DNA of 64,000 bases from an uncultured Chloroflexia bacterium (GTDB taxonomy: Bacteria > Chloroflexota > Ktedonobacteria > Ktedonobacterales > Ktedonobacteraceae). Under the pieces are notes generated by a model. That model ran no database searches. It saw only the letters and a list, made by a program, of their open reading frames with translations, and was not told where the DNA came from. Shown piece after piece: positions 4,195-60,750 of the stretch (positions are counted from its first letter, which is position 1; every line of letters starts with the position of its first letter). Location: positions 110,749 through 174,748 of the forward strand of contig CAWFFV010000034.1 in the NCBI GenBank assembly GCA_963814985.1, read 5' to 3'. A program made the position numbers and the translations under genes.

Positions 4195-6130
4195 GCCGAC
4201 CTGACAGAAAAGAACCCGCCGCAAGCCGTTGCGGTTTGAACCCATGCGGTCAGGCGGGTTTTCTACGGCTTTAGCCCTTGCTTGTTGCATTCTGTCTAAA
4301 TTTCATTATACTGGATGTATGGAAAAGACAGATCGACTGAGCTACAAGCGAGAGGAACACCGATCATTTCATTTGAGGCGTGAATTCCCTGAAATCCTCA
4401 CCAAATTGCCCTCAACGTGGACCCGTTCGTATTTCTCTAGCACTGCTGGCGCGGTAAGCGCAGAAACGATTCAGAAATACATTGATGCTCAGAAAGGCGT
4501 GTAACGCACATGGCAAAGGCGACCAGGACGATCCAGCAGGCTTTGAACTATCAGCCCGACCATGCAGCATGGTTTGCGGCCAACCAGGACCAGTTTAACC
4601 GTGTGGTCGCCTTTTACTTTGGCGTGATCAATGCCCATGAAAAGCTGATGGATCTCTCCAATAAAGAGGCCCTCTCTGCACTAGAGAAACTCACTCACCG
4701 GACAACGGACAACCCCGATCCGATCATGCCTTTGACCTCAATTGCGGAACATATCCCCGCGATGTTCCGGCGTGCCGCCATTAACGCAGCGCTCGGCTCT
4801 GCACATGCATTCTTCAGCAGCCTCAAGAAGTGGAAAGCCAGGAAAGCAAAAGCAGAGGCCAGGGGCAAGAAATGCAAAGATCGTCCACCCGTGCCCCCAC
4901 GCACCTGGAGAAAATCTGCCTCATTCTATGCTGGCATGTGGAAAGACCGAACGGCTTCTACTCTCCTGCTCAAGGTGTGGACCGGCTCGTGTTGGGCCTG
5001 GGTCAAGGTGCGAACGCTGGGAAGAGAGGGAGAAAACGGCTTTGAACCGGGTAGCCCCTCTTTAGTCTGCAAAGGCAAGCAGTGGTGGCTGCATACTCCT
5101 GTTGAGAAGAAATTCACCAGTCCAGCAAAAGTCGCTGAGCAGATCACCAATACCACGACAAAACTCTGTTCAGTTGATCTCAATCTCGGCGAGAACCTCG
5201 CCGTCTGCACTATTCAGACTGTCGAAGGTACAATTCTTTCCACCCGATTTCTCAAAGGTGGCAAACGGGTAAACGGCTTTAGGAAGAGACAGCTCGGAAT
5301 CATTGCACGGAATCGCCGCAAGACGGGAATCATTGCCGAAGGGGAGCAGGATAATGCTGCGCTCTGGCAACAGATCCGCCACCATGATGAAACCCAGTCC
5401 CATCAGATCAGCGCCCGCATTGTCCAATTTGCCAAAGCTCACGATGCAAGCATCCTGGTCTTTGAACACTTAGGCAATCTGAAGCCAGAGCGAGGAAAAT
5501 ATAGCAAACGCGGCAATACCAAACGTGCCTTCTGGATGAAGGGGCGTATCTTCCAATACGCCAAATACAAAGCCTGGAATGAAGGCATCATCACGAGCCG
5601 CGTCAACCCTCGCAACACGAGCCGCGAATGCGCCCGTTGCCATTCGTTGGTGATCCGCTATGCACAAGGATCACTCGAAGAAGGCTACACGATAGGGACT
5701 CCACTCGTGGTCTGTTCCTCCTGTGGGATGCGGGGCAATGCTGATCGCAATGCCGCCATCGTGATCGGGCGGCGGCTCATCACCCGTCATCAAGAAAAGC
5801 CTCACACTCTTCCTGCTCAAAAAGCGAGGGAGGATGAGAAATCATCAGGTGAGATCATCTGCCAGGATGCCAAAAGGGATGAGAGACCGTCCATCTCTCG
5901 AACTGGGCGTGCAGATCATCTGGGGCATGGCACCGCCCACGAGAGAAAGCGCCGGATCTATTCCTACCCAACTACGCCTATTCACCGAGTAGCTTCTACG
6001 AGGCACATACTCACAATGAGCGACTACGGAGGAGTGGAAGAAGCCGCCGTCCCTTCAGGGCGTGCGGAGTGTCACGGAGTCGTGAAATTGATGTTTTGCG
6101 GCTGATGGCCAGGGGAATAATATACAATTT
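4195..6130 (+). mobile_element. IS200/IS605-family (IS1341-like) element carrying tnpB only; boundaries are approximate.
   Basis: A GC-rich nested hairpin at about 4209-4262 (cccgccgcaagccgttgcgg...ggcggg) precedes a TnpB ORF. No tnpA gene is present. Confidence 0.45.
4510..6105 (+). CDS. tnpB: TnpB (OrfB) RuvC-like RNA-guided nuclease of the IS605/IS607 family, with a long C-terminal extension.
   Basis: A RuvC-like core is followed by the zinc finger CARCHS...CSSCG and the motif NADRNAAIVIGRR. The ORF is 531 aa versus a typical size near 400 aa, so the 3' roughly 300 nt probably overlaps the omega-RNA or right-end region. Confidence 0.85.
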   Translation: MAKATRTIQQALNYQPDHAAWFAANQDQFNRVVAFYFGVINAHEKLMDLSNKEALSALEKLTHRTTDNPDPIMPLTSIAEHIPAMFRRAAINAALGSAHAFFSSLKKWKARKAKAEARGKKCKDRPPVPPRTWRKSASFYAGMWKDRTASTLLLKVWTGSCWAWVKVRTLGREGENGFEPGSPSLVCKGKQWWLHTPVEKKFTSPAKVAEQITNTTTKLCSVDLNLGENLAVCTIQTVEGTILSTRFLKGGKRVNGFRKRQLGIIARNRRKTGIIAEGEQDNAALWQQIRHHDETQSHQISARIVQFAKAHDASILVFEHLGNLKPERGKYSKRGNTKRAFWMKGRIFQYAKYKAWNEGIITSRVNPRNTSRECARCHSLVIRYAQGSLEEGYTIGTPLVVCSSCGMRGNADRNAAIVIGRRLITRHQEKPHTLPAQKAREDEKSSGEIICQDAKRDERPSISRTGRADHLGHGTAHERKRRIYSYPTTPIHRVASTRHILTMSDYGGVEEAAVPSGRAECHGVVKLMFCG

Positions 6131-8976: not shown

Positions 8977-9128
8977 ATAAGTCATCCCGGTAACTATTCA
9001 GGTGTTCTCACCATCTGCGGTGGCCCGCCCTCGTTTTGTTGGCAGTGGCAGGGTTTGCGCCGCAAACCCTGCCACTGCCAACAAAACCTACGAAGCGCCT
9101 GTGGCGCTGAGGAGGCAGGGAAAAGGGA
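8977..9128 (+). repeat. Family-1 palindromic MITE copy; the right TIR is missing.
   Basis: A GTCATCCCG remnant is followed by GTAACTATTCAGGT, then ...CACCATCTGCGGTGG..., then a perfect 55-nt palindrome (GTTTTGTTGGCAGTGGCAGGGTTTGCG-C-CGCAAACCCTGCCACTGCCAACAAAAC), then CTACGAAGCGCCTGTGGCGCTGAGGAGGCAGGGAAAAG. Confidence 0.75.
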
Positions 9129-9166
9129 TGTCTCTAAATGCTGCTCTCACAGCGAGAGCGGCATTG

Positions 9167-9781
9167 TTATGTCATTATCTCTATGATCTTCTGTTGTAGA
9201 ATAGTCTCATCGACAGGACCAACCACCATCGAGCGAATAATCCCATGGAGGTCGATAAAATAGGAGGTTGGTGTCCCTTCCAGATTATACAGCGTTGCCA
9301 CACGATTATGCTCATCTAGAAGTACTGGATAGGTCAGATTATACTGCTGTACAAACTGTCGTGTGGTTTGTTCATCATCGACGCTATTCACACTCAGTAT
9401 GACAAAGCTCCTGCCTTCTGCCCGTTGGGATGCATAAAATCTCTGCATAGCAGGGATCTCTGCAAGACAACCAGGGCATGTCGCATACCAGAAGTTGAGT
9501 ATAACAGCTTTGTCACGGTAGTCACTCAAGCTCACTCGTACATCATCCAATCTCGCAAGAGTAAAATTGGGTGCGACACTGCCAATCTGGAGACCGACTG
9601 GTACCAACGAAGATGATGATGGAGAGAAAGGTTGTGTCACAGGAATAGCAGGCTTGAGTAATCCTGTCGTGATGATGGCCAGTGTTGCAATAACAGTCAC
9701 GACAATAATGCTACGAGTGATAAGTGCGGGTATGCTTCGACCAGCCGTAAGAGTCTGATGACGACTATCAGATTTACTCAT
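9167..9781 (-). CDS. Membrane-anchored thiol-disulfide oxidoreductase of the TlpA/ResA (redoxin) family.
   Basis: An N-terminal TM segment precedes the CxxC active site WYATCPGC, within a thioredoxin-fold motif set (VILNFW ... YPVLLD). Confidence 0.8.
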   Translation of the reverse strand: MSKSDSRHQTLTAGRSIPALITRSIIVVTVIATLAIITTGLLKPAIPVTQPFSPSSSSLVPVGLQIGSVAPNFTLARLDDVRVSLSDYRDKAVILNFWYATCPGCLAEIPAMQRFYASQRAEGRSFVILSVNSVDDEQTTRQFVQQYNLTYPVLLDEHNRVATLYNLEGTPTSYFIDLHGIIRSMVVGPVDETILQQKIIEIMT

Positions 9782-9808
9782 GAGATGTTTCTCTCCCAGG
9801 AAAGGCTT

Positions 9809-10924
9809 TTAATGTGTCGATGTCCCCCCCTTTGGCCATATAATGAATAAACAATGGCCTGTTTGCGTCTGACAGCTACATTCCACTTCAGTGACTTCCC
9901 AGGTGGCATCCAGGCCGACAAGGTGCAAAGTTGCCTCTAGTGACGCACTCCAGACATGACACACTGGTTCAGGGCGATAGGTACGTCCATAAACGTAGAG
10001 ATTACTATAATGGACCAACCAGTAACAGCCATCTTGCCGTGGCAGATACATATGTAACTCTTCGTCACGAATTGTATTCATCTCGCTGGTAAATGACTTC
10101 AACAGCATGCTCATTACCTGCTTCTCAGGAAGAAGATGAAGCATCTGTTGAGTCAACGTCGAGAGATGACGTTTCTGTAAAGAGATCTGGGTAGACATGT
10201 TGCTCCAACTGCGAAGTTGACTGATGGGATCATCAGGCCTTGAGCGTGCAACAGCCTGGTGAAGGCAAGTGAGATATTCGGCAGGAACGGAGCGGATGTC
10301 ATTATTGGGAGGCCATCCTCTGACCCGAGCATACTTGACCAAGCCTACATCTTGCATCAGCGTTGCCCATAGTTCAGCTCCGATCAGCTTATACGCGACC
10401 TGGAGCATCTGGCGAAAGTGACCGTTGCCCGAACAGCGCTTCTTGGAGACACGAGGCACCAAACCATGAGTCGGTAAGAGATCCAGGACAAGTGAGTGTT
10501 TCTTCTCCTGCATCTGTGATAGCGGTAAGACCCTTCTGATCACTTCTAGTAACTGAGCAGATATAAACGAGGTCTGAGTATCCTGATCAGACTCCTTAAA
10601 AGGAAAACACTCTTGCAAGGGAAGAACAGGAATATTCCTTCCTTGCTCATCGGACAGCTTCTGCACGAGACGCGAAAGGGCATAGCGGCTTTGAGTATCT
10701 ACCTGACCGAGCAAAACGGCATGTGGGACAAATTGTTCTTGAAGGAGGCGTTGGAATGCATGGAAAGGGGTAGTTGTCACATATGGACAATAGTCTGCGA
10801 GGGTCAGAACGCGTGCTGCACATTGTGCTCGTCCTTCATTGGCATCAATCACTAAGAGTGCAGAGTGCATCGTTGCAGGCATTGCTGGAGATGCCATCTC
10901 AATCTCCTTATCTATCATTTGCAT
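9809..10924 (-). CDS. Hypothetical protein with an N-terminal receiver-like region and a C-terminal Cys-rich, V4R-like region.
   Basis: LLVIDANEG is receiver-like. The C-terminal CHVWSASLEATLHLVGLDATWEVTEVECSC...GHCLFIIW resembles V4R/hydrocarbon-binding domains. Support is weak. Confidence 0.3.
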   Translation of the reverse strand: MQMIDKEIEMASPAMPATMHSALLVIDANEGRAQCAARVLTLADYCPYVTTTPFHAFQRLLQEQFVPHAVLLGQVDTQSRYALSRLVQKLSDEQGRNIPVLPLQECFPFKESDQDTQTSFISAQLLEVIRRVLPLSQMQEKKHSLVLDLLPTHGLVPRVSKKRCSGNGHFRQMLQVAYKLIGAELWATLMQDVGLVKYARVRGWPPNNDIRSVPAEYLTCLHQAVARSRPDDPISQLRSWSNMSTQISLQKRHLSTLTQQMLHLLPEKQVMSMLLKSFTSEMNTIRDEELHMYLPRQDGCYWLVHYSNLYVYGRTYRPEPVCHVWSASLEATLHLVGLDATWEVTEVECSCQTQTGHCLFIIWPKGGTSTH

Positions 10925-11205: not shown

Positions 11206-11298
11206 CGGATAGATATTCAGACGTATAGTAATGGCAAAGGGATCATGCGTGTACATGCATGATCCCTTTGCCATTACTATACGTCTGGAATATCACCC
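11206..11298. repeat. Large near-perfect palindrome of about 90 bp, with 31-bp perfect arms around an 8-nt centre.
   Basis: The left arm CAGACGTATAGTAATGGCAAAGGGATCATGC (11218-11248) is followed by the centre GTGTACAT, then the right arm GCATGATCCCTTTGCCATTACTATACGTCTG (11257-11287). The flanks extend the palindrome with a single indel. Confidence 0.8.
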
Positions 11299-12060
11299 GT
11301 AACTACTCAGATCCCTGTTCCATGGGTCATCCCGGTAACTATTCAGGTACCCTCACCACCTGCGGTGGCTCGCTCTCATGAGTCATCCCGAACTTTTGAA
11401 AAAGTTCCCAAAACCGGGGGTGCAGGGTTTCCCTGCCGGGGCTTGGGGTGTCCCCAATAGCTTCTTTTTCCTCTCTCTCCGCCGCAAGCGGCGAGCAAAA
11501 GAAGGAAAAGATGTTTTTCGGGGGCACCCCAAACCCCGGCAGAAGGCTGCCGCCCTCTGCACTCCCGCTTGCCAAACAGGTCAAAAGGGCATTTCATGTC
11601 CCGGAAAAGTTCGGGATGACTCATTGCCTGCGAAGCGCCTACGGCGCTGAGGAATCAGGGAAAGAAACCTGAGTAGTTACGTCATCCCGAATTTTTCGAA
11701 CAAAGGTTCGCAATCTCTCAAGCGGCTTGAGAAGCGGGATTGTCAAGGGCGGCCAGCCCTTGACCGGGGTCTGACTTGTTATCACAACTTTAGTCGATCT
11801 GCTGAGCCAGCTTGGGAAGCTGACTCCCAAGGATGAGTTCAAGTGATTCTAGCTCAGCAGAACAGAGAGACGAGCCGTTTTCATCGGCTTGCCACCTGCC
11901 TTCACAAGATATCGACTAAAGTTGGATAACAAGTCAGACCCCGGCAGGGATGCTGCACTCCCTGCACCCTCGCTTTTGCGAACTTTTGAAACAAAAATTC
12001 GGGATGACTCATGGAACAAGAGCAAGCCACCGCAGGTGGCGAGCAGACCTGGATAGTTAC
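11299..12060. repeat. Composite nest of MITEs: a solo TIR, a family-1 MITE carrying a complete family-2 MITE (11378-11624) in place of its variable core, a second long family-2b palindromic element (11681-12013), and an inverted solo family-1 left arm (12014-12060).
   Basis: At 11335-11377, GTAACTATTCAGGTACCCTCACCACCTGCGGTGGCTCGCTCTC is followed directly by ATGAGTCATCCCGAACTTTTG...CAAAAGTTCGGGATGACTCAT, and then TGCCTGCGAAGCGCCTACGGCGCTGAGGAATCAGGGAAAGAAACCTGAGTAGTTAC ending at 11680. The family-2b element has internal inverted repeats GGGGTCTGACTTGTTATCACAACTTTAGTCGAT / ATCGACTAAAGTTGGATAACAAGTCAGACCCC. Confidence 0.75.
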
Positions 12061-12068
12061 GGGTGATA

Positions 12069-13695
12069 TTAATGAAAAAGTATCGAAGCCAGGATCAGGA
12101 CCACCACAGATTGTATGACCCAGGTAATCAGTCCAAGCATTATAGCTTTCATTCCCGCAGTTCTGATTGCAGATGACGTCACACGAGTACAGATCCCGAT
12201 AATTGCTAACATCAAAAAGACCGCAGAGAAAGTCGTGGGAAAGGTTTTTGCAGGCCATGTTGCTAATGGTCCTGTCAGCCCAACTGGAAGGGTAATCACG
12301 GTATTGATCAGCACTAACACGAAGAAAGCAAGCACAAAGAGTGGAAATGTCTTCAAGGCACCCGTCACAATAGTAGTTCCTTGACTTCTGGCCTCCTGTA
12401 CATTCTCTTTCCAATTAAAGAATATATTCAAGGAGAAAACAAGCACCACGATAAAGCCAATACAGAATCAACTTCACGAGCAGTGCAGCATTGAGTGCAG
12501 CTGTCCCTCCTCCTTGTTGAGCGGCTGCTATCAGCTGTGGTAAATCATGCATCGTTGCTCCTGTCCAGGCTCCATAGACGGCAGGGCTGAAGTGAAAGAT
12601 GCTATTGATCAGCGGATAGAGAAACAATCCTACTGTTCCCCAGCACAGGATCGTTCCCAGGGTAATGGCCGTTTCTTCATCTCTAGCACGAATAGCTGGC
12701 GATGTCGCCATGGTTGCCGTTATTCCACAGATGCCCGTGCCTGTTCCAATAAGAGCCGCTATGCGGGGATTGATTTTCATGAGTTTGCCAACGGACATGG
12801 AGACACCAACAGCAATCAAGACTGTCGAGGTAACGATGACGAGATCCTGTATCCCGGATTTGAGTAGGGAGGTGTAGGAAAATTTTAGAGCAGAGAGGAT
12901 GATACCAAGTCGAAGGAACCAGCGTGTGCTAAAGATCAGACCTGGCTGTATCCGTTCCGAAAGCGGATAAATATTCCCGACAATGAGAGCGAAAATCCCT
13001 GCGATAAAGATATCTACAAAAAAAGTATTGTGCAAACTGATTTCAATATTCCACAATAGTTCCGCTATAGCAGCAATTGGGAAAACCACGAGCAACAAGC
13101 CAGGCAATGCCCTCTGAATTTCCTCGTAACCAGGATAAAGAGGCGTGCCTCGCCACCCAAGGTAGCTCTTGAAGGGAAGCGTTTCCTCGTCTTGCAACGG
13201 AGAAGAGAACTCATGGAGAATACCTGTTACTTCCTCAGCCATGCTTCTACTATCAGGTTCTCTTGTCACTCTTAATCTGTTTGTCGCCTCGGTTTCTCCC
13301 TGGAAATTTGTTAAAAGAGCTTTGGAAGAGAGTAGCTCTTCTATTTGACCTGGGGAGTGCCTGGGATACAAACGTATCACTTCGTCTAAGCGTTGCATAT
13401 GTGTCGTTACATTCGGTCCCAGGTAAACACCTGGGAGACCACGAAGAAGCGCAGTATCTTCACCGAACACACGTCCTCCAAAGCAGAGGATCGGACGAGG
13501 ATGCTGCAAGTGGGCTACCTCTCGTCCCACCTCCTTCACATCATGGATACGGGAACGTTTCATCGCTGAAAGATAGATAATTCCTGGACGGATAGGACGT
13601 ATTGTCTCAAGCAACCTGGGCAAATCCCTGACCTCTGACAACTGTCCGTGATAATGTACATGGAATCCCGCACGACGCCAAAAGAGAGCCAGCAT
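12069..13695 (-). CDS. YeiH/UPF0324-family (putative sulfate exporter family) membrane transporter with an N-terminal B12-binding-like Rossmann domain. There is an apparent frameshift near 12415-12450, and the reading frame stays open upstream of the annotated Met.
   Basis: GTGTGICGITATMATSPA matches the YeiH GSSICGASA motif, and there are many TM segments. The N-terminal RKGLLIFVCSAPQETYEIDALMLALFWRRAGFHVHYHGQLS aligns to the B12-binding domain but lacks the canonical DxHxxG histidine. The last roughly 120 aa are in another frame (12069-12449). Confidence 0.55.
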
Positions 13696-17865: not shown

Positions 17866-17918
17866 CTGAATCGTATAATATGTTCTTTAGAGGTAACTCC
17901 TCAGGTCACGAGTTACCT

Positions 17919-18377
17919 CTAGGATTGAGATTCCAGATACGTTTTTAGCATCTGTAAAATGCGCTCATTCTCCTGACGAATTCTTCTCAGGAGTACAGGC
18001 TGCAAGAGCTTAAGGATACCAGCAAGGGTAAGAGAGATATTCCTTGTCACCTGGGTCCCATTCTCTAACGGTTCCAGTGCATACGAAGCAGAAATAGCGA
18101 TTTCTCCTGACAAACCCAACTTTTTGAAGCGCGTCGCTTGATAAAAGGAGACCTGTGTAGGCGGGATAAGGGTTGTAACTTTGCCTCGTAGTACGGCTGA
18201 AGGTCCTCTGTCAAGATAGGTTGTTCCATTTTTGATGGGATTATCTGAAATTGTAGAGGTACCAATAAATACATCGGATGGGGGAAGCCATTTATCATAG
18301 TTGCTTAAGTCAGTAATAAGCTGAAAGACTGCCTCAGTAGGGCGCTTGATCATACAATGAAACTGCATCTCTGGCAT
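17919..18377 (-). CDS. SRPBCC (Bet v1-like / polyketide cyclase-like) family protein.
   Basis: The fold-family motifs are present and the likely start is MPEMQFHCMIKRP. The longer ORF upstream is translated from MITE sequence. Confidence 0.6.
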   Translation of the reverse strand: MPEMQFHCMIKRPTEAVFQLITDLSNYDKWLPPSDVFIGTSTISDNPIKNGTTYLDRGPSAVLRGKVTTLIPPTQVSFYQATRFKKLGLSGEIAISASYALEPLENGTQVTRNISLTLAGILKLLQPVLLRRIRQENERILQMLKTYLESQS

Positions 18378-18422
18378 TGTTTTATTGCTCCCTCTCCTGG
18401 TAATGAGAGAATCCGAAATTTG

Positions 18423-18574
18423 GTAACTGTTCAGGTATCCTCGCCACCTGCGGTGGCTCGCTCTTGTTTTATGCGGGTTGCGGTGTTTGCGCCGCAAACA
18501 CCGCAACCCGCATAAAACAATCTGCGAAGCGCCGAAGGCGCTGAGGAATCAGAAAAAGAGACCTGAATAGTTAC
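18423..18574 (+). repeat. Complete 152-bp family-1 MITE with 14-bp TIRs.
   Basis: Reads GTAACTGTTCAGGT-ATCCTCGCCACCTGCGGTGGCTCGCTCT-[perfect palindrome TTGTTTTATGCGGGTTGCGGTGTTTGCG-C-CGCAAACACCGCAACCCGCATAAAACAA]-TCTGCGAAGCGCCGAAGGCGCTGAGGAATCAGAAAAAGAG-ACCTGAATAGTTAC. It is flanked by AAATTT-like sequence on both sides. Confidence 0.85.
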
Positions 18575-18676
18575 AAAATTTATGATTCGCATAAGATGGC
18601 AGAAGGACATGAGCCTTCTGCCATCTTGAAAGTGTCAGCTTTCCTATCCATTAAGATTGCTCAATGGGCTACAGGA

Positions 18677-23476: not shown

Positions 23477-23881
23477 ATAAGTCATCCCGAATTTTTCGGA
23501 CGTACGTTCTATATCTTTCAATCCGCTTGAGAAGCAGGGTTGCAAGGGTAGCAGCTCTTTTCCGGGGTTTGCAGGGGCGTCCTCCGCTTCTTTCTCTCTC
23601 TTCTCACATTACCTGTGTTGTCGTATAAAAGAAGAAAAAGGGGTTTTTCGGGGATATCTGGGTTTGGCAACCCGCGAACTACGGCAGAGTGCTCTGCCCT
23701 ATAGACCACTTTCCGATTCTGGTTGGTTGTAACTATTCAGGTTCCCTCGCCACCGGCAGGTGGCTCACTCTCGTTTTATGTGGGTTGCGGTGTTTGCGCC
23801 GCAAACACCGCAACCCACATAAAACAACCTGCGAAGCGCCGTACGGCGCTGAGGAATCAGGGAAAAGGAAACTAAAGTTAC
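23477..23881 (+). repeat. MITE nest: a truncated family-2-like element (23481-23728) followed by a complete family-1 MITE (23729-23881).
   Basis: ATAAGTCATCCCGAATTTTTCGG... is followed by GTAACTATTCAGGTTCCCTCGCCACCGGCAGGTGGCTCACTCTC-[perfect palindrome GTTTTATGTGGGTTGCGGTGTTTGCG-C-CGCAAACACCGCAACCCACATAAAAC]-AACCTGCGAAGCGCCGTACGGCGCTGAGGAATCAGGGAAAAGGAAACTAAAGTTAC. Confidence 0.8.
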
Positions 23882-24188: not shown

Positions 24189-24412
24189 TGAGGCTAACAG
24201 CCAGACGTTTAAGCATGAGATATGTGTGGGCCAAATACATAAAAAATCCCTTCATTCAACAATATTTGGGTAGGTAGATAAGCATTCCCAAATGTTCTTG
24301 CCAGGAGGAGCAGTGTATGTTAGTGGCATGCTCCTGTCAATATCCATCTCATAATGTAACTGCTCGGATCTCCTTTTCTTAAATCCTCACTGCCATAGGC
24401 AGTTCACAAGCC

Positions 24413-24534
24413 GTTTTGTTGTCTGTGGCTGAGATTGCACCGCAATCTCAGCCACAGACAACAAAACCCACACAATATGAGAGCGAGCCACCGCAGGTGG
24501 TGAGGAATCAGGAAAAAGGGCCTGAGCAGTTACA
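24413..24534 (+). repeat. Rearranged family-1 MITE: core palindrome, then the inverted box A, then the right tail.
   Basis: The perfect palindrome GTTTTGTTGTCTGTGGCTGAGATTGC-ACC-GCAATCTCAGCCACAGACAACAAAAC is followed by GAGCGAGCCACCGCAGGTGG (the reverse complement of box A) and TGAGGAATCAGGAAAAAGGGCCTGAGCAGTTAC. Confidence 0.7.
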
Positions 24535-26355: not shown

Positions 26356-26394
26356 TGTACTGGACCTCTTAAAAAATATAGTGCATAACTCCTC

Positions 26395-26565
26395 AGGCTC
26401 CTCTTTCCGGATTTCTCAGCGCCTTCAGCGCTTCGCAAGCTCGTTGTATGTGGGTTTTGTCGCCTGTAGTAGAGGTTGCGACGCCTACTACAGGCGACAA
26501 AACCCACATACAACGGCTTGCGAAGCCACTGCAGGCGGTAGAGGAGACCTGAAGAGTTACGATAT
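26395..26565 (-). repeat. Inverted-orientation family-1-related MITE with an extended palindrome.
   Basis: GGATTTCTCAGCGCCTTCAGCGCTTCGCAAG is the reverse complement of the right arm. It is followed by the palindrome CTCGTTGTATGTGGGTTTTGTCGCCTGTAGTAGAGGTTGCGACGCCTACTACAGGCGACAAAACCCACATACAACGGC and then TTGCGAAGCC...ACCTGAAGAGTTAC. Confidence 0.65.
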
Positions 26566-36522: not shown

Positions 36523-36783
36523 TATGAGCCATCCTGAACTTTTGTTTCAAAAGTTCGCAAAAGCGAGGGTGCAGGGAGCGCAGCATCCCTGCCGGGGTCT
36601 GGGGTGTCCCCAGAAACTCTTTTTACCTCTTTTGTACGCCGCTGCAGGCGGCGTGAGAGGAGAGAGAAAGAGGCAGGGGACACCCCTGCAACCCCGGCAA
36701 AGGGCGGCTGCCCTTTGCAATCCTGCTTCTCAAGCCGCTTGAGAGATAATGAACTTTTGTTCTAAAAATTCGGGATGACCCAT
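36523..36783 (+). repeat. Complete family-2 palindromic MITE of 261 bp; it overlaps the 3' end of ung.
   Basis: TIRs ATGAGCCATCCTGAACTTTTG ... AAAAATTCGGGATGACCCAT flank an internal long imperfect palindrome (GGGTGCAGGGAGCGCAGCATCCCTGCCGGGGTCTGGGGTGTCCCC ... GGGGACACCCCTGCAACCCCGGCAAAGGGCGGCTGCCC). Confidence 0.8.
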
Positions 36784-37467
36784 GAATTTTAGAGATCGGG
36801 GAAGTTGCCAATCAATCTCAGGTTTGCCTGCTTCGCGTAGGGCCTGGTTGATTGCAGAGAAAGGACGGCTCCCGAAGAAGCCATTGCGTGCGGAGAGGGG
36901 AGAAGGATGTGCAGACTGTATAACAGTGTGACGTGTGGTATCGATCAGGCTCAGCTTTTTCTGTGCATAGCCACCCCACAACACAAAAACGACGGGACTC
37001 TCCTTCGCGTTGACAATGCGAATGACGGCATCTGTGAAAGTTTCCCAACCATGGTTTTTATGTGAATTGGGTGAGTGCGCCTGCACAGTCAGGACGGCAT
37101 TCAACATCAGAAGTCCCTGTTTTGCCCAAGGAACAAGATAGCCGTTGTTAGGAATACGAAAGTCCACATCTTTTTGTAGTTCTTTGTACATGTTGACTAA
37201 CGACGGCGGAGGTTTGATTCCTGGAAGCACGGAGAAACAGAGGCCATGCGCCTGATTATCATCATGATAGGGGTCCTGGCCCAGCAACAGGACATTGACG
37301 TTTTCATAGGGTGTAAGTTGGAGGGCTGAGAAGACATCCTGTTCAGGTGGGAAGACCGTCTGCTGTTGACGTTCCCCATCTACGAATTGTTGCAATTTTT
37401 GGAAATAGGGTTTCTTGAATTCTTCGGCCAGGTGAGTTTGCCAGCTTTCGGGAATGTTTATCTGCAT
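36730..37467 (-). CDS. ung: Uracil-DNA glycosylase (family 1).
   Basis: The conserved blocks GQDPYH, LLLN and HPSPLSA are present. The last roughly 18 codons and the stop are supplied by the family-2 MITE. Confidence 0.88.
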   Translation of the reverse strand: MQINIPESWQTHLAEEFKKPYFQKLQQFVDGERQQQTVFPPEQDVFSALQLTPYENVNVLLLGQDPYHDDNQAHGLCFSVLPGIKPPPSLVNMYKELQKDVDFRIPNNGYLVPWAKQGLLMLNAVLTVQAHSPNSHKNHGWETFTDAVIRIVNAKESPVVFVLWGGYAQKKLSLIDTTRHTVIQSAHPSPLSARNGFFGSRPFSAINQALREAGKPEIDWQLPRSLKFMGHPEFLEQKFIISQAA

Positions 37468-40450: not shown

Positions 40451-40490
40451 AGCAGGAGTTATCAGATAGGTAACTCCTGCTTTTTGTAAT
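40451..40490 (+). terminator. Rho-independent terminator downstream of sufB.
   Basis: AGCAGGAGTT-atcagataggt-AACTCCTGCT followed by TTTTTGT. Confidence 0.55.
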
Positions 40491-40612
40491 ACTTCTCCTC
40501 ACCACCTGCGGTGGCTCGCTCTGGTTTTATTGTCGATGGCGGGGGTTGCGCCACAACCCCCGCCATCGACAATAAAATGTCTTGCGAAGCGCCTTGGGCG
40601 CTGAGGAATCAA
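40471..40612 (+). repeat. Family-1 MITE copy; the right TIR is degenerate.
   Basis: Reads GTAACTCCTGC...CTCACCACCTGCGGTGGCTCGCTCT-[palindrome GGTTTTATTGTCGATGGCGGGGGTTGCGCCACAACCCCCGCCATCGACAATAAAATG]-TCTTGCGAAGCGCCTTGGGCGCTGAGGAATCAAATG. Confidence 0.7.
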
Positions 40613-40687
40613 ATGAGAAATGTAGCTTCGCTCTTTTGCGTATTTTTAAAGGTTCAGGTTGGATTTTGTTCATGCCAGCCGCCAGAG

Positions 40688-45607: not shown

Positions 45608-45610
45608 GAA

Positions 45611-45650
45611 AAAAGCGCCTCTCAAAGTATTTTGAGAGGCGCTTTTTTTA
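45611..45650 (+). terminator. Strong rho-independent terminator (bidirectional: A-tract / 13-bp stem / T-tract).
   Basis: AAAA-AGCGCCTCTCAAA-gtat-TTTGAGAGGCGCT-TTTTTTT. Confidence 0.8.
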
Positions 45651-50315: not shown

Positions 50316-50497
50316 CCGGCATAAGTATTTCTCCTTTACCTGAAAAAAATACATTAATAGGATAACCTTACATCTGAGTCGATAAAAACACAAGAAATGA
50401 GTACTTTTACGTTTCTCTGTAACTCATCATACTAAGTGGCAAACGGGATATTTTTCATCTTAGAAAGATGGTGCCGCTCGGTTTAATGAGCATCTAG

Positions 50498-50668
50498 TAT
50501 CAGATATCCTTACCACCGCAAGTGGCTTACTCTCATTGTGTGGATGGTATTGTACCGTGGCGGAGATTGCAGCGCAATCTCCGCTACGGGCGATACCATC
50601 CACACAAAATAGCTGGCGAACTGCCGTGGGCAGTGAGGAATCGAAAGAAAAAAGAACACCTGAAGTAC
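50498..50668 (+). repeat. Divergent family-1 MITE copy.
   Basis: Reads TCAGATATCCTTACCACCGCAAGTGGCTTACTCTC-[imperfect palindrome]-AGCTGGCGAACTGCCGTGGGCAGTGAGGAATCGAAAG...ACCTGAAGTAC. Confidence 0.6.
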
Positions 50669-50782
50669 TCCATTCAATATAGCCGTGCTATACTATTCGC
50701 CAGTTCAAAGAAATTCAAGTGCTATAAAAGAGCAACATACTTAGCGGCAAAGGGAATAATCTCAAGAGAGTAGGACAAGTTC

Positions 50783-56125: not shown

Positions 56126-57580
56126 CTACACCAACTTCTCCAGTGTAGGTAGTAGCACATCATCTCGTCTGGCTTGTAACAGTGAGCGCAAGCGTTCGGT
56201 AACAACCACACGAATGCGGCGCTGGTGTTGTTCGTAGCGAGCAAGATCGTCGGATTGCAGACCTGTCACCGCTACCCAGGTCATCAGTGGGTCCATTCCT
56301 ACTGGTGGATGGGCAAAAGAGATCCAGACATCCATCTCCCACTTTTCAGGACGCGGAATATCGAAGAGGATCTCGTAATCGGCAATTTCTACCTCAAGGG
56401 CAGTGGCTAACTCAGCGGATAATGCTTGCTCGACGCGTCTCCGTCGCTCCGCATCCCAGAACAGTGCATCGAGACGATTGAAGAGGCGACCAGCGGGACG
56501 ACTCACTTCCAGCACAACTTTATACGGACGCCTCAGCTCCAAATCTGCTGTCAGGGCACGGGAACTGGCTGGCATCTGCGGACCCGCGAGAAGCACAAGC
56601 AGCGAAGCGTCATCCAGTCCTACCAGTTGTTCTGCTTGTAGCGTTCCAGCGGTGAGCGCGTCATGGACGGCACGCAGCAACATCACCTGCAAAGATCGGC
56701 TGGTGTGATGCCAGTAGATATTGTCAAACATCTCTTGTCGTGCATGTAGCAGTGAGTGCAAGGGGCTGATGCCCTTATGCGTGACGACAATCCGGCGTTG
56801 TTCATTCACATCGTTATGTATCCGCAGCGCCCCTACCAGACGCGAAACATCTACACCGCCATAAGGAACATTACAGGCACGAGCATCGCGTGGCAAATAA
56901 TCAAGTTTGTCGATATCCAGAGCTCCACTCAATAAGTGGCTCAGCAGTTCATCATCGGGATGTTGCGCCCTTGCTTTTGGTGGGTCAATAAAATCCGCGA
57001 CGCGTTCGGGTGAGAGGTGATAATCATGCTCTAAGATAGTGGCGATCTCGCTATTCTCAATGATCGAACGTCCCACTTTTTCGTGCAATACGATGGGGTA
57101 ACCCAATTCTTCTATTGTATGCGAGAAGGGATAGTGTCCAATATCGTGGAGTAACGAAGCAACTATCAGCGTTTGCACGCTACTGATCGAAACTCCGTAC
57201 AGTCCACCATCCTCACCACGGTGCAACAGAGACCGCAAGGCACGCACAGCCAGATGGTAGCAGCCAAGGCTATGTTCGTAACGCGTATGGGTCGCGCCAG
57301 GCCAGATACGGTAAACGAAGCCCAGTTGCTTTACACGCTGGAGACGTAAAAATGCCGGTGTATTGATAAGTTTTTCTTCGCGCAAGCCGAAAGGGATCAG
57401 ATCATAGAGGCTATCACGTACTGTGCTTACCGGATCTTCATCGGGTAGCAAAGGAAAGCCAGTTGCATCTCTCCAGGAGTGGTGCATACTTGCTTGCACA
57501 AGAGTTTCCGTAAATTGCTGATTGTCCGGGGAAGGACGTTTTGTGCGAACGCCCTTGGGACGCTCTTCTCGCATCTTCAT
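56126..57580 (-). CDS. HD-domain dNTP triphosphohydrolase-like protein (dGTPase/SAMHD1-like family).
   Basis: The HD motif context THTRYEHSLGCYHLA...LLHDIGHYPFSH is present, with the dGTPase-family architecture. Confidence 0.75.
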   Translation of the reverse strand: MKMREERPKGVRTKRPSPDNQQFTETLVQASMHHSWRDATGFPLLPDEDPVSTVRDSLYDLIPFGLREEKLINTPAFLRLQRVKQLGFVYRIWPGATHTRYEHSLGCYHLAVRALRSLLHRGEDGGLYGVSISSVQTLIVASLLHDIGHYPFSHTIEELGYPIVLHEKVGRSIIENSEIATILEHDYHLSPERVADFIDPPKARAQHPDDELLSHLLSGALDIDKLDYLPRDARACNVPYGGVDVSRLVGALRIHNDVNEQRRIVVTHKGISPLHSLLHARQEMFDNIYWHHTSRSLQVMLLRAVHDALTAGTLQAEQLVGLDDASLLVLLAGPQMPASSRALTADLELRRPYKVVLEVSRPAGRLFNRLDALFWDAERRRRVEQALSAELATALEVEIADYEILFDIPRPEKWEMDVWISFAHPPVGMDPLMTWVAVTGLQSDDLARYEQHQRRIRVVVTERLRSLLQARRDDVLLPTLEKLV

Positions 57581-57630
57581 AAGAAGATTCTATCAGATGA
57601 ACCACAACATTGTCTAATGGTCAGTCTATC

Positions 57631-57842
57631 GTAACTCCTCCGACATCTTTTTCTGGATTCCTCAGCGCCGAAGGCGCTTCGTGAGTTGTTTTATGCTGGT
57701 TGTGGTGTTTGCAGCGCAAACACCACAACCAGCATAAAACAAGAGCGAGCCACCACAAGTGGCGAGGGTATCTGAATAGTTACCGGGATGACCCATGACG
57801 AGGGCGAGCCACCGCCGGTAGTGAGCAGATCTGAGTAATTAC
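57631..57842 (-). repeat. Inverted-orientation family-1 MITE, followed by a family-2 TIR fragment and an additional solo family-1 left arm.
   Basis: GGATTCCTCAGCGCCGAAGGCGCTTCG is the reverse complement of the right arm. It is followed by the perfect palindrome GTTTTATGCTGGTTGTGGTGTTTGC-AGC-GCAAACACCACAACCAGCATAAAAC, then AGAGCGAGCCACCACAAGTGGCGAGGGTATCTGAATAGTTACC, then GGGATGACCCAT, then GAGCCACCGCCGGTAGTGAGCAGATCTGAGTAATTACC. Confidence 0.75.
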
Positions 57843-57990
57843 CAAATGACGAAAATATATCAATATAGATACTGGTGTATCACATGTTTTCAGTATATAA
57901 TTATTCTATCCTCACTGTGGTGAGGACGCGACGGAAAAGCTAACCTGTCGCATTGCTGTTTTTTAACATGAAGGGTCTGATAATACATTT

Positions 57991-58881
57991 ATGGAAACAC
58001 AACCCCCAGTTGTTAAACTACTCGTTATAGATATTGATGGAACACTCCTCAACCCTCAAAAACAAATCACGCCTCGCACTATGGCAGCAGTTAAGGCAGC
58101 ACAACAGGCCGGCATCATCGTTACTCTGGCGACTGCACGACGCTACTATAATACCCTGCCCATCGCCACTGAATTGGGAGTGGACATTCCTCTTATTCTC
58201 TGCGATGGCGCGTTAATCGTAGAGCATCCTCATGATATGGTTCTCCATACACACTCACTACAGGCCCACATTGCCCAGCAGGCTGTCGATATACTGGTGG
58301 ATCATCAGATCCAACCCGTTGTACATCATATCAACGGTAGCGTAGAAGAGACGTGGACCGGTCCCAACGAATACGATAACGATTGGGTCGCGGCCTACCT
58401 TTCTTCTTGTCCTGGCGACCTGCGTCGTATGCATCACTCTGCATGCTGTACAGGACAACCTGATCCGCTACGTGTTGTCGCCTTTGCATCGGAAGAACGC
58501 GTCAGGCAATTAATACCTGAAATCTCCAGTCTGCCCTGCTCGTGGAATATGACAAAGCGCGGCAGTTATGGTAGTGCTGAGATTGGCGTTCTGGGGCAAT
58601 CCTGCTCCAAAGCCAGCGGTGTCACAGCACTAACACGCCACCTGAAGATCCCACTTGATCAGGTTATGGCTATTGGCGACAATAACAACGATATCGAGAT
58701 GCTTCAGGCTGTCGGCTGGGGAGTCGCGATGGGGCAGGCCTCTGATGAAGTAAAGGCCATGGCCGATGCTATTACCGCCAGCAATGCCGAAGATGGAGTG
58801 GCCCTGGCAATCGAACGCTATGCATTGCGTTGTGAGTCCAGTGCTGCTTCAAACTCTTTTAACCGTACCACCTGTCTGTGA
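57991..58881 (+). CDS. HAD-IIB (Cof-type) phosphatase.
   Basis: HAD motifs DIDGTLL, T(L)ATARR and GDNNNDIEML are present, with a Cof-like cap. Confidence 0.85.
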   Translation: METQPPVVKLLVIDIDGTLLNPQKQITPRTMAAVKAAQQAGIIVTLATARRYYNTLPIATELGVDIPLILCDGALIVEHPHDMVLHTHSLQAHIAQQAVDILVDHQIQPVVHHINGSVEETWTGPNEYDNDWVAAYLSSCPGDLRRMHHSACCTGQPDPLRVVAFASEERVRQLIPEISSLPCSWNMTKRGSYGSAEIGVLGQSCSKASGVTALTRHLKIPLDQVMAIGDNNNDIEMLQAVGWGVAMGQASDEVKAMADAITASNAEDGVALAIERYALRCESSAASNSFNRTTCL

Positions 58882-59548
58882 TTAGGTGCAGCCTGCCAGC
58901 GTTTCTGTTGGATTAGATGCAAAGCATCGCGGGCATGGATTTCATCGTACACCAGCACGGCACCAGTCAACAGAACGCTGCGCCCCACCCCATGTTCGCA
59001 GTGAATCAAGACGCGACCACCCTTTGCAATACGCTCATGGACCCAGGTCACTCCCTGCATTAACTGCTCAACAGAGAGCGGATAAGTATCGGGAGCTGGT
59101 AAATACAATAACTCAATATTCTCTTGTGCCAGCGCTTGACGTCATCACAGTATTCGGAGCGCGTATCTACCACATGCGTGATACCTGCTCGCCCCAGTGC
59201 CTTAATATCTTCTGGCCGTACACGTCCACCCACAGCAAGATGACTATTCACCCAGCTCAGATTTAATTTGTCTGGCAGCGGAATATGCCATGAGCGAGCA
59301 ATCTTCTCACTTCTAGAGTTCTCTGGGAAGAGATGAACTGCGATACGTGTCCAGGCTCGATAAGAGAGACGCACAGCGCCTTTCGAGGCCCATTGCACAA
59401 ACGAAAAATGTATATGAGGGCGCTCAATCACTACAGAAGTTTGTTGAGTACTGGCAGACGAAGAAACAGGTGTTGACAGAGTTTCGTCTTCCGCTTGCTT
59501 ATCAATGGGTGGTGGGGGTATCGGTTCCGATGACATGAACGGGATCAT
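58818..59548 (-). CDS. Dual-specificity / protein-tyrosine phosphatase (CX5R), split by a frameshift near 59060-59108. Its 3' end overlaps the convergent HAD gene.
   Basis: The C-terminal ORF has the active site HCEHGVGRS. The N-terminal ORF has VVDTRSE and a Pro-rich N-terminus. The two overlap in different frames. Confidence 0.65.
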
Positions 59549-59615
59549 CCTTCTTTTAGTCCAGTGTAATCATTGTAAATTGCTGCTAACTTGGATCTGT
59601 GTCTATTGAAACATA

Positions 59616-60605
59616 TCAGTGCGATGTCACCAAAGGTGGCAGGGCAGCTTGTTCATCAGATAGAGCAGGCACCGTGTCTCGTTGTGTGACGCGCTTGAGT
59701 GCTGCTATAGCACACTCTATCATACTATCGTCGGGTTCGCGTGTCGTCAATCCCTGTAAAGCCAGACCGGGAGCAAGAAGCCACCTGACAACACGATAGC
59801 GATAATTTGCTGCCCCCAGGCGCATCAGTTCGTAAGCAATTCCTGCGACAACAGGAACCAGCAAGATACGTGAAAGCACCTTGATGAGCAACGGAGGAGA
59901 ACCAATCAACGCAAACACGAAGATCGAGACGACCATTACCAGCAATAAAAAGCCCGTCCCACAACGAGTATGCACACGCGAGGCCCGACGCACATGTGGA
60001 ATATCCAGTGGGTCGCCCTGTTCCATCGCATTAATAGTCTTATGTTCTGCACCATGATAGCCAAAGACGCGCTGAATATCGGGCACCCGGCCTATCAAGT
60101 AGAGATAACCAACTAACAAGCCCAGACGAATAATACCTTCGAGTGTCAGATTTAGCCAACCATCACCGATCTGGCCCCGTAGCAGACTTGTTACTAACAA
60201 CGGTCCCACAAAAAAGATGGCAACGGCCATACTCAATGATACCAGCAACGTGATTACCAGTGTCGCACCACCGATTTGGGGTGGTTTCTCTTCCAGGTGG
60301 TCCTCTTGCGCCTCTCCCTCCAGTTTTGCCGAAGTAGCAGGCTCATCGGGATTGAGTGCTCCCGTAGAGATGTTGGCAGAGAGTGTCATCATGCGCGTAC
60401 CCAGTACTAGCATTTCCCAGAGTAGCAACATACCGCGCAGAAAGGGCAGACGAAAGAGCTTATTCTGGTACAATTTGGGATCAAGTGCCTCCTCATAGAG
60501 GTAGATGCTGTCATCAGGTCGCCTGACTGCCACCGCTGCTGAGGAACGACCCCGCATCATCACTCCCTCCATGACGGCCTGACCACCGTAATAGAACGTT
60601 GCCAT
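59616..60605 (-). CDS. DUF1385-domain membrane protein (YqhQ-like).
   Basis: The N-terminal signature GGQAVMEGVMMRG is present, with TM helices and HGAEHKTINA. Confidence 0.8.
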   Translation of the reverse strand: MATFYYGGQAVMEGVMMRGRSSAAVAVRRPDDSIYLYEEALDPKLYQNKLFRLPFLRGMLLLWEMLVLGTRMMTLSANISTGALNPDEPATSAKLEGEAQEDHLEEKPPQIGGATLVITLLVSLSMAVAIFFVGPLLVTSLLRGQIGDGWLNLTLEGIIRLGLLVGYLYLIGRVPDIQRVFGYHGAEHKTINAMEQGDPLDIPHVRRASRVHTRCGTGFLLLVMVVSIFVFALIGSPPLLIKVLSRILLVPVVAGIAYELMRLGAANYRYRVVRWLLAPGLALQGLTTREPDDSMIECAIAALKRVTQRDTVPALSDEQAALPPLVTSH

Positions 60606-60750
60606 AAAGTTTTCCTTTCGCTACCTTGTTTTCACTCTTCACAAACGAACCGGACACTAATGCATCCGTTTCTCTGGCGTGGCCATATCGTGAGAGAGTT
60701 CCCGTGGAGCCAACATTGAGAGACGACGAAAGATCGGACTCTTTAAGAGC

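Follow-up and report, generated by a model that had tools for sequence, protein, structure and literature searches.

A family of miniature inverted-repeat transposable elements whose variable central hairpins stay almost perfectly paired

Introduction

The 64,000-nucleotide stretch of contig CAWFFV010000034.1 analyzed here (the window, to which all unlabeled positions refer) contains at 18423-18574 a short non-coding element built around a long palindrome, and related loci in the same window carry palindromes of different sequence that are for the most part paired equally well. How can a hairpin change its sequence from copy to copy and keep its two arms complementary? The initial annotation of this DNA described the loci as a family of miniature inverted-repeat transposable elements (MITEs) and proposed that one arm of the central palindrome is copied from the other. 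We find that the element is a MITE. Taken as a whole, the account that we consider probable is that of a ktedonobacterial MITE which would be moved by a DDE-type transposase, and whose core would be kept paired by recopying of one arm from the other, most likely through template switching during replication. The family is apparently undescribed and appears to be abundant in soil Ktedonobacteria.

Anatomy of the element

The copy at 18423-18574 begins with a left terminal inverted repeat (TIR; GTAACTGTTCAGGT, 18423-18436) and a linker, followed by a box A (CTC-GCCACC-TGC-GGTGGC-TCGC) that contains a 6-bp hairpin, hairpin A (GCCACC-TGC-GGTGGC, 18443-18457). The core is a 57-nt perfect palindrome at 18464-18520, with arms at 18464-18491 and 18493-18520. 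It is followed by box B (CTGCGA-AGCGCC-GAA-GGCGCT-GAGG), which carries hairpin B (AGCGCC-GAA-GGCGCT, 18528-18542), and then by an A/G-rich spacer and the right TIR (ACCTGAATAGTTAC, 18561-18574).

Across the family, the terminus is a 13-14-bp TIR, GTAACTNTTCAGG, with its complement CCTGAANAGTTAC at the opposite end. Each arm is a long terminal repeat of about 50 bp holding one small conserved hairpin, either of type A (GCCRCC-TGC-GGYGGC) or of type B (AGCGCC-NNN-GGCGCT), and between the arms stands the central hairpin, with a stem of 22-34 bp and a loop of mostly 3 nt, giving a non-coding element of about 140-180 bp. Box B is approximately the reverse complement of box A while carrying a different small hairpin, and the two arms are therefore two versions of one long TIR of about 50 bp; the combinations A...A' and B'...B occur too.

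Folded as a single strand, the element forms a four-way junction in which the TIRs together with CCTC/GAGG make up the outer stem and hairpin A, the long core, and hairpin B are the three branches. The folding energy of 18423-18574 as single-stranded DNA (ssDNA) is -62.8 kcal/mol (z=-14.6), and the corresponding RNA fold has a z-score of -13.3. Being a palindrome, the element folds equally well on either strand. The core additionally has a compositional polarity, its 5' arm being G/T-rich on both strands in 100 of 101 family cores (73% G/T, with G-C 43%, T-A 30%, C-G 16%, and A-T 11%), while unrelated hairpins on the same contigs have only 52.5% G/T in the 5' arm and no such bias. A generic footprint of intrastrand template switching, as predicted in PMC8794818, was considered as the source of this polarity and rejected, since those unrelated hairpins lack it.

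Pairing of the core

Seven cores in the window are 100% complementary, with arms of 24-31 nt. The initial claim that the core is perfect in every copy is right for these seven and fails for two others, the copy at 50496-50670, which is imperfect, and the copy at 11335-11680, whose core slot holds a different repeat. Nor are the cores always odd palindromes, as had been stated, since the unpaired center ranges from 1 to 12 nt among the window copies. A conserved center, TTGCGCCGCAA, was likewise described; it is found in some copies, is replaced by variants (TTGCACCGCAA, TTGCAGCGCAA, TTGCGCCACAA) in others, and is missing in the copy whose core begins at 26442, and most of the metagenome copies listed have GGCGGCC-NNN-GGCCGCC or GCAGCC-NNN-GGCTGC in its place. 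The mirrored differences among the cores starting at 18464, 23773, and 57686 are as described, and they are automatic because each of these cores is a perfect palindrome.

Further copies were collected from soil metagenomes with the exact box B pattern, giving at least 120 loci, and most of those listed carry the full architecture with cores that differ from one another. When the window copies and the listed metagenome copies were anchored on box B, 105 distinct cores were obtained, and 97 of these are perfect. Frequent mismatches or GU pairs, the outcome that the initial annotation had named as telling against its reading, were looked for in this set, which yielded 10 mismatches (A·C four times, C·A once, and others five times) against 2830 Watson-Crick pairs, and not a single G·T or T·G pair. 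When 22 full copies were aligned, changes on both sides were seen in 16 of the 17 core pairs scored, and 98.3% of cells are paired compared with 35-52% when the partners are slid; no shuffle reaches the observed values.

The age of individual copies can be set against the state of their stems in the 16 copies that have a recognizable target-site duplication, which serves as an internal clock. In these same copies, mismatches affect 12 of 128 duplication pairs (9.4%), 32 of 208 TIR pairs (15%), and 1 of 434 core pairs (0.23%; Fisher p=1.3e-7), which places the mismatch rate of the stem about 40-fold below that of the duplication. Copies that have lost 2 of the 8 duplication positions keep perfect stems of 26-34 bp, so that the perfection of the core is not mere youth. 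The paired TIRs, which lie about 130 nt apart, are not homogenized, and this fits a short-range process. Long hairpins that do not belong to the family are perfect in 39 of 47 cases on the same contigs, which fits what would be expected of a generic process acting at the level of DNA. These data support the conclusion that core perfection needs more than ordinary purifying selection of the RNA type.

Changes at orthologous loci

Orthologous loci could be compared in ten contig pairs, drawn from different samples and 96-100% identical. Between L123 and L134, whose flanks are 3.2% different, positions 7 and 43 of a 49-nt hairpin change jointly from A-T to G-C, while position 33 differs alone and leaves a G·T / A·C mismatch in one strain, an intermediate state. 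Between L152, which is identical to L213, and L240 (flanks 3% different), positions 10 and 46 change jointly from C-G to T-A and the 3-nt loop at positions 27-29 goes from TGT to ACA, its exact reverse complement, so that one event of reverse-complement copying accounts for all five differences. L170 and L204 do not differ in their flanks (0/381), and their sole difference is a central loop that reads GCC in one and GGC, its reverse complement, in the other. The chance that independent substitutions at 3% divergence would produce such patterns is of the order of 1e-6 or less.

Summed over the orthologous pairs, the hairpins differ by about 2.2% and the flanks by about 1.5%, from which it follows that the sequence drifts while the pairing is kept. 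At orthologous loci, then, pairing is maintained in place, with mirrored changes and loop inversions.

The apex of the hairpin differs in another manner between L121 and L233. Read in the orientation from box A to box B, CCCGGG in the one corresponds to TCCGAG (CTCGGA on the other strand) in the other, which amounts to two C-to-T-type transitions, one per strand, within the apical six bases. Such transitions would be expected if the loop were exposed as ssDNA on both strands in vivo.

Target-site duplications and mobility

Full copies delimited by TIRs number 42-43, and 12 of 42 have flanking 8-mers that are identical at 7 or more of the 8 positions, 8 of them perfectly; when the comparison was shifted by 4 nt as an offset control, none of the 42 exceeded 4/8. 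The duplicated sites are 77% A+T and are 8 bp, sometimes 9 bp, in length (examples are AAATTTTG, TCTATTAT, AATATAAA, CTTTTCAC, TATCTCTT, CTTACAAA, and AATTATTT). Such duplications were one of the checks proposed in the initial annotation, and a second, presence/absence polymorphism, also gave a positive result. Two metagenome strains, L219 and L220, share 97.3% identity, but only one of them has, at the site concerned, an element with the family TIRs, bordered by a clean 8-bp duplication, CTGTTCAC. Since the inserted copy has a different interior, mobility is proven for the TIR family and not for the cloverleaf subtype itself, and the TIRs define a wider family with several cargoes. With TIRs at both ends, flanking duplications well above the offset control, small non-coding copies dispersed in intergenic regions of the window and in many metagenome loci, and a presence/absence polymorphism, the element is a MITE, that is, a non-autonomous DNA transposon, as first described.

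The 8-bp duplications point to a DDE-type transposase acting on double-stranded DNA (dsDNA). Such an enzyme would act in trans on the TIRs to insert the element, making the AT-rich duplication of 8 bp or sometimes 9 bp. An IS66-like transposase is a candidate partner, as the GTAA ends and the 8-bp duplication resemble those of the IS66 family. The genes between TIRs that lie 0.4-5 kb apart are ordinary ones (in L130, for example, those for a GNAT protein, a histidine kinase, and a response regulator), and the open reading frames (ORFs) adjoining solo TIRs, judged by eye, are ordinary genes except for one IscB-like protein. No ORF for an IS66-type DDE transposase (TnpC) was found in the collected sequence of about 0.9 Mb, where a pattern for the IS66 transposase motif, which is a weak test, had no match.

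How the pairing may be kept

After insertion, the central hairpin would drift in sequence at a roughly neutral rate. A point mutation arising in one arm of the core would then be either reverted or mirrored onto the partner arm by a brief switch of the replication template inside the hairpin (quasipalindrome correction), and the same events could flip the loop. The observations support arm-to-arm copying that acts in place as a generic, known DNA process not special to this element; that replication template switching is the enzymology, and that the hairpins have any role in transposition, we infer. In the stems of rRNA and microRNA, the classes "compensatory mutation + loop inversion" (Table 1 of PMC8794818) and "loop inversion only" have been attributed to replication template switching (PMC8794818), and both occur here, the former in L152/L213 versus L240 and the latter in L170 versus L204. 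The initial annotation had argued that selection on an RNA structure would tolerate GU pairs and that copying between arms was therefore indicated. This argument is borne out by the lack of G·T in the tally of core pairs, by stems that are perfect in decayed copies, and by mirrored changes in place. Of the three copying mechanisms that it offered, fold-back synthesis during ssDNA transposition is disfavored, because the changes occur in place at fixed loci and because of the 8-bp duplications; template switching during replication fits best.

Several observations weigh against this account. About 8% of cores have a mismatch, arm indels occur in some (L122, L135), and in the window the copy at 50496 shows clear decay. 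The informative events in place are few, being two mirrored pairs and two loop inversions, and a third candidate for a mirrored pair, in L121/L233 (near position 1188 of L121), was rejected because its changes are off register by one position and not compensatory. Strong selection for a DNA hairpin, with fast two-step compensation, could itself yield mirrored pairs, and short-tract gene conversion from a paralogous copy is another possible source of them. The G/T richness of the 5' arm hints at a constraint on the core that copying alone does not explain. Many of the perfect hairpins outside the family have diverged box-like hairpins alongside and so are not fully independent evidence, and the conservation of box B among the metagenome copies is partly an ascertainment effect, since the copies were selected by the exact box B pattern. 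Finally, the mobilizing transposase with matching TIRs that the initial annotation advised looking for was not found, as a search of about 0.9 Mb for an autonomous partner (two TIRs separated by 0.4-5 kb, together with a duplication and an ORF for a transposase) returned none.

Selection for a DNA hairpin may contribute to the pairing. If the hairpin has to form, as ssDNA or as an extruded cruciform, for transposition or for a host function, purifying selection with two-step compensation in large populations might keep it paired, and this would agree with the stem length of about 22-34 bp kept across very diverged copies and with the conserved G/T richness of the 5' arm; a similar pattern in REPINs was in fact read as selection (PMC3116915). 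It would demand, however, separate selection on each of very many dispersed copies after insertion, and it should tolerate G·T, the least destabilizing mismatch, which is absent from a tally of 2830 pairs. The inversions of the loop from TGT to ACA and from GCC to GGC are left unexplained, and unrelated hairpins on the same contigs are mostly perfect as well, so we regard selection as an unlikely explanation. Rather less likely still, in our judgment, is that the core is a self-renewing unit with a function, such as a hairpin or cruciform that the transposase or a host factor has to recognize, in which diversification is favored while pairing and G/T richness are kept. Template switching by itself does not account for the G/T bias (100/101), the constancy of stem length, or the conservation of the flanking hairpins. 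Were it true, a possible benefit would be less ectopic recombination among hundreds of copies; alternatively, the element might be copied through a single-arm intermediate.

The consensus four-way junction with its strong covariation and the very stable RNA fold would suit a structured non-coding RNA (ncRNA) gene or a cis-regulatory RNA, a cloverleaf of three hairpins closed by CCTC/GAGG. We think this very unlikely, as no Rfam family matches, no G·U occurs among the core pairs, the fold is equally good on both strands, copies of both orientations lie in intergenic regions that are convergent, divergent, or tandem, and the duplications and the insertion polymorphism show mobility. T-runs lie 5' and A-runs 3' of the stem on both strands, the reverse of an intrinsic terminator, and the reading of the family stems as terminators was rejected for this reason. 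That cores are perfect in most copies, and that the element is able to fold on itself as a single strand, could also mean that the core is regenerated during transposition by fold-back (snap-back) synthesis from a single-stranded or half-element intermediate, in which case cores would be perfect at birth and the copies young. Perfect cores persist, however, in copies whose duplications (9.4%) and TIRs (15%) have decayed, fixed orthologous loci show mirrored changes and flipped loops, and 8-bp duplications with TIRs are typical of DDE enzymes on dsDNA (cut-and-paste or copy-paste) and not of ssDNA HUH enzymes; we hold regeneration of this kind to be highly improbable. It is extremely improbable that the element is a REPIN, an inverted doublet of REP-like palindromes mobilized as ssDNA by a RAYT (an IS200/IS605-like tyrosine transposase), given 13-14-bp TIRs and 8-bp duplications that REPIN/IS200-type insertion does not produce and the lack of a RAYT gene among the 20 window ORFs scanned. 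The interior does match, with two conserved small inverted palindromes around a variable hairpin spacer with compensatory changes (PMC3116915), and TnpB- and IscB-type relatives of IS200/IS605 lie nearby in these genomes.

Copies in the window and their surroundings

At least 10 loci in the window had been listed as sharing one architecture. A search with an nhmmer profile derived from 22 full copies returns just these loci: eight copies that are full or nearly so, a ninth that is split by an insert, and two solo arms (Table 1). Box A, box B, and the TIR have 8, 6, and 15 matches in the window, where 0, 0, and 0.6 are expected by chance. All 11 loci are intergenic, in both orientations and in convergent, divergent, and tandem intergenic regions. 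The core arms match nothing in the rest of the window except sister copies, and the idea that the core is a guide sequence was rejected on this basis.

Table 1. Copies of the family in the window and the duplication flanking the copy at 18423-18574
Feature	Positions	Strand	Details
Full MITE copy	18423-18574	+	order box A, core, box B; nhmmer E=9e-39
Decayed 8-bp target-site duplication of 18423-18574	18415-18422 (left, GAAATTTG); 18575-18582 (partner, AAAATTTA)	.	6/8 identical
Copy without right TIR	8990-9138	+	perfect core 9033-9087; ATAAGTCATCCCG just before; E=2.5e-23
Copy with core slot filled by a 247-bp second-family repeat (11378-11624)	11335-11680 (profile: 11335-11389 + 11612-11680)	+	9-bp duplication GTCATCCCG
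Solo arm (box A + TIR), right end of outer nested element 11299-12060	11997-12060	-	E=7e-9
Full copy, right TIR degenerate	23729-23881	+	perfect core 23773-23825; E=6e-30
Full copy	24356-24533	-	perfect core 24413-24467; B-type hairpin variant CTGCC-ATA-GGCAG; E=9e-21
Full copy	26385-26560	-	31-bp perfect core arms 26442-26472 + 26485-26515; 12-nt loop; 8-bp duplication 6/8 identical
Copy without both TIRs	40484-40627	+	perfect core 40525-40577; 5-nt loop; E=3e-23
Old degenerate copy, TIRs decayed	50496-50670	+	core with ~3 mismatches + 1 indel; E=7e-11
Full copy	57631-57783	-	perfect core, arms 57686-57712 + 57716-57742; adjoins motif CGGGATGACCCAT; E=2e-33
Solo arm (TIR + box A) of outer, interrupted copy	57788-57842	-	E=6e-5

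The copy at 11335-11680 is nested within the outer element 11299-12060. A second MITE-like repeat family, with ends CATGAGTCATCCCGAA...TTCGGGATGACTCATG, occupies 11378-11624, 11681-12013, 23477-~23700, and 36524-36784, and a junction in which ...TCATCCCG is followed directly by GTAACT recurs in the window at 8977, 11322, and 57784 and in the metagenome on L122, L124, L125, L129, L154, L185, and L238. At 11335-11680, the junction repeat is a true 9-bp duplication. It looks as if the end of the second family is either an insertion hot spot for the GTAACT element or part of a recurrent composite. The outer element is itself bordered by inverted AATATCACCC / GGGTGATATT (11289-11298 / 12061-12070), which suggests a further layer of nesting. 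To the left of this nested cluster, a palindrome of 35+35 nt without spacer (11218-11287, 97% complementary) is unrelated to the family.

Reduced forms of the element were also seen. L142 (minus strand, offset 235) and L239 carry minimal versions of 65-80 bp that have lost the core, with hairpin A fused to hairpin B (CCTCGCCGCAGGCGCTGAGGA), and a 71-bp deletion between CCTG repeats, which removed one hairpin arm, distinguishes L226 from L144. The A/B fusion and the CCTG-repeat deletion are decay routes of the family. In the window, the gap between two convergent ORFs contains a mini hairpin at 17889-17920 (AGAG-GTAACTCCTCAGGT-CAC-GAGTTAC-CTCT), formed by a TIR placed back to back with a partial inverted one, which could be a minimal remnant, a terminator, or the footprint of an excision. 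Unrelated to the family, and a contrast to the MITE cores, is an ordinary bidirectional intrinsic terminator at 45609-45648 (A-run, 18-bp perfect stem including the A-run, 4-nt loop, T-run).

Two genes related to other mobile elements were also noticed. The 531-aa ORF at 4510-6105 (+) has a Cas12f1-like TNB domain (Pfam E=3.6e-14) and is a TnpB-type RNA-guided nuclease gene of an IS200/IS605-like element; no link between it and the MITE was found. On L122, a 460-aa frame at about 8990-10370 (+) looks IscB-like by eye, on account of an HNH motif, a PLMP motif, and a stretch rich in arginine. About 375 nt separate its start from that of a 110-bp family copy, which is bordered by inverted CATGAGTTATCCCG / CGGGACAGCTCATG.

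Host and distribution

Proteins encoded in the window include TPR, Roc-COR-LRR, Ser/Thr-kinase, and housekeeping proteins, and the HD-domain protein at 56126-57580 has homologs at 80-85% named Ktedonobacteraceae, Ktedonosporobacter, or Chloroflexi, as well as one 100% match. Judged from such protein sequences, assignment of the host to Ktedonobacteria (Chloroflexota) is supported. Ktedonobacteria have very large genomes that are rich in repeats, and to our knowledge their small mobile elements are essentially uncatalogued.

Window positions 56126-61983 are syntenic with contigs of relatives (L241/L242, L243, and L244) through genes for an MGDG synthase, a DUF1385 protein, a PTP, an HAD hydrolase, and the HD protein. 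These contigs have a gene of about 870 aa resembling Vgb lyase between the HAD hydrolase and HD genes, where the window has the pair of MITEs at 57631-57842. Three syntenic contigs (L241, L243, and L244; 34 kb, 80-84% protein identity) contain no family copy, which indicates that copy density varies between lineages; divergence of their orthologous intergenic regions is too great to define an empty site.

The plasmid collection held no family match, and among viral contigs there was one box-B-like match with the rest of the element missing. A 15-base box A pattern gave 119 matches in genome contigs of unrelated phyla, which were rejected as chance, as was the sole Ktedonospora locus (L051). 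At the Rfam gathering score, only a tRNA-Arg passes in the window, and in E-value mode the element yields just sub-threshold matches to generic miRNA hairpins. The initial annotation could name no described element to which the family corresponds, and searches of Rfam, the plasmid collection, and the literature agree, with no paper or entry found for this family. Two metagenome sequences, L169 (the whole 5844-bp contig) and L200 (2282-2498), are perfect palindromes centered on a family hairpin and are almost certainly fold-back chimeras of assembly or amplification. Elements of this kind break or corrupt assemblies and should be masked for gene and ncRNA prediction.

Comparison with known systems

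The ends of the element find their nearest match, which we take as a lead, in the IS66 family, for which PMC11946415 (citing TnCentral) gives inverted repeats of 20-30 bp starting with GTAAGCG and direct repeats of 8 bp. Like bacterial MITEs of the IS66 type or otherwise derived from DDE elements, the present element is small and non-coding, with TIRs that begin with GTAA and duplications of 8 bp or sometimes 9 bp, and it has many dispersed intergenic copies, nesting, and insertion polymorphism between strains. Its terminus, GTAACTNTTCAGG, starts with GTAAC(T) and so shares only GTAA with the GTAAGCG of that description, with which an arm of about 50 bp would be compatible. It further differs from IS66-derived MITEs in that no transposase with its ends was found in about 0.9 Mb, and from DDE-derived MITEs in general in having small conserved hairpins, one per arm, and a central hairpin that is long, hypervariable, and nearly perfect.

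The interior is reminiscent of REPINs (Bertels & Rainey 2011, PMC3116915), which also have two conserved short inverted palindromes, a less conserved spacer that pairs with itself, common compensatory changes, and alternative "long hairpin" and "clover" folds. REPINs have neither TIR nor duplication and rely on an HUH tyrosine transposase, and because the present element has both TIRs and duplications, it falls outside that class in spite of the similar interior. Correia elements (NEMIS) of Neisseria and the ERIC/IRU elements of enterobacteria are intergenic inverted repeats of about 100-150 bp that form long hairpins, and known ones can affect neighboring transcripts. Correia elements, however, duplicate TA and pair through 26-bp TIRs, ERIC elements lack a clear duplication, and neither is known to have a hypervariable perfect hairpin between two conserved small ones. 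An integron attC site (RYYYAAC ... GTTRRRY with extrahelical bases) was also considered and rejected, as the stem base is GTTTT...AAAAC, there are no bulges, and the copies are scattered among housekeeping genes.

In its behavior over time, the core resembles hairpins maintained by template switching (Mönttinen & Löytynoja 2022, PMC8794818; Löytynoja & Goldman 2017, PMC5453318), in which compensatory changes arise in one step, with or without inversion of the loop, and perfect stems are kept. That literature deals mainly with short stems, a few base pairs long, in rRNA and microRNA, and with reporter assays, whereas here the stems are 22-34 bp long and lie in hundreds of dispersed transposon copies. 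Thus the MITE as a kind of element and maintenance by template switching are known, and what appears to be new is this family, which offers an unusually clear, quantifiable case of hairpin self-correction. Each copy brings its own neutral clock in the form of the duplication, together with a long stem that should decay equally but does not, which lets the family serve as an exceptionally clean natural experiment on the persistence of hairpin pairing and bears on a long-standing question, the compensatory evolution of stems. Given complete genomes or a strain in culture, hundreds of independent hairpins would allow arm copying to be measured directly for its rate and direction, and also for how it depends on loop length and host repair genes.

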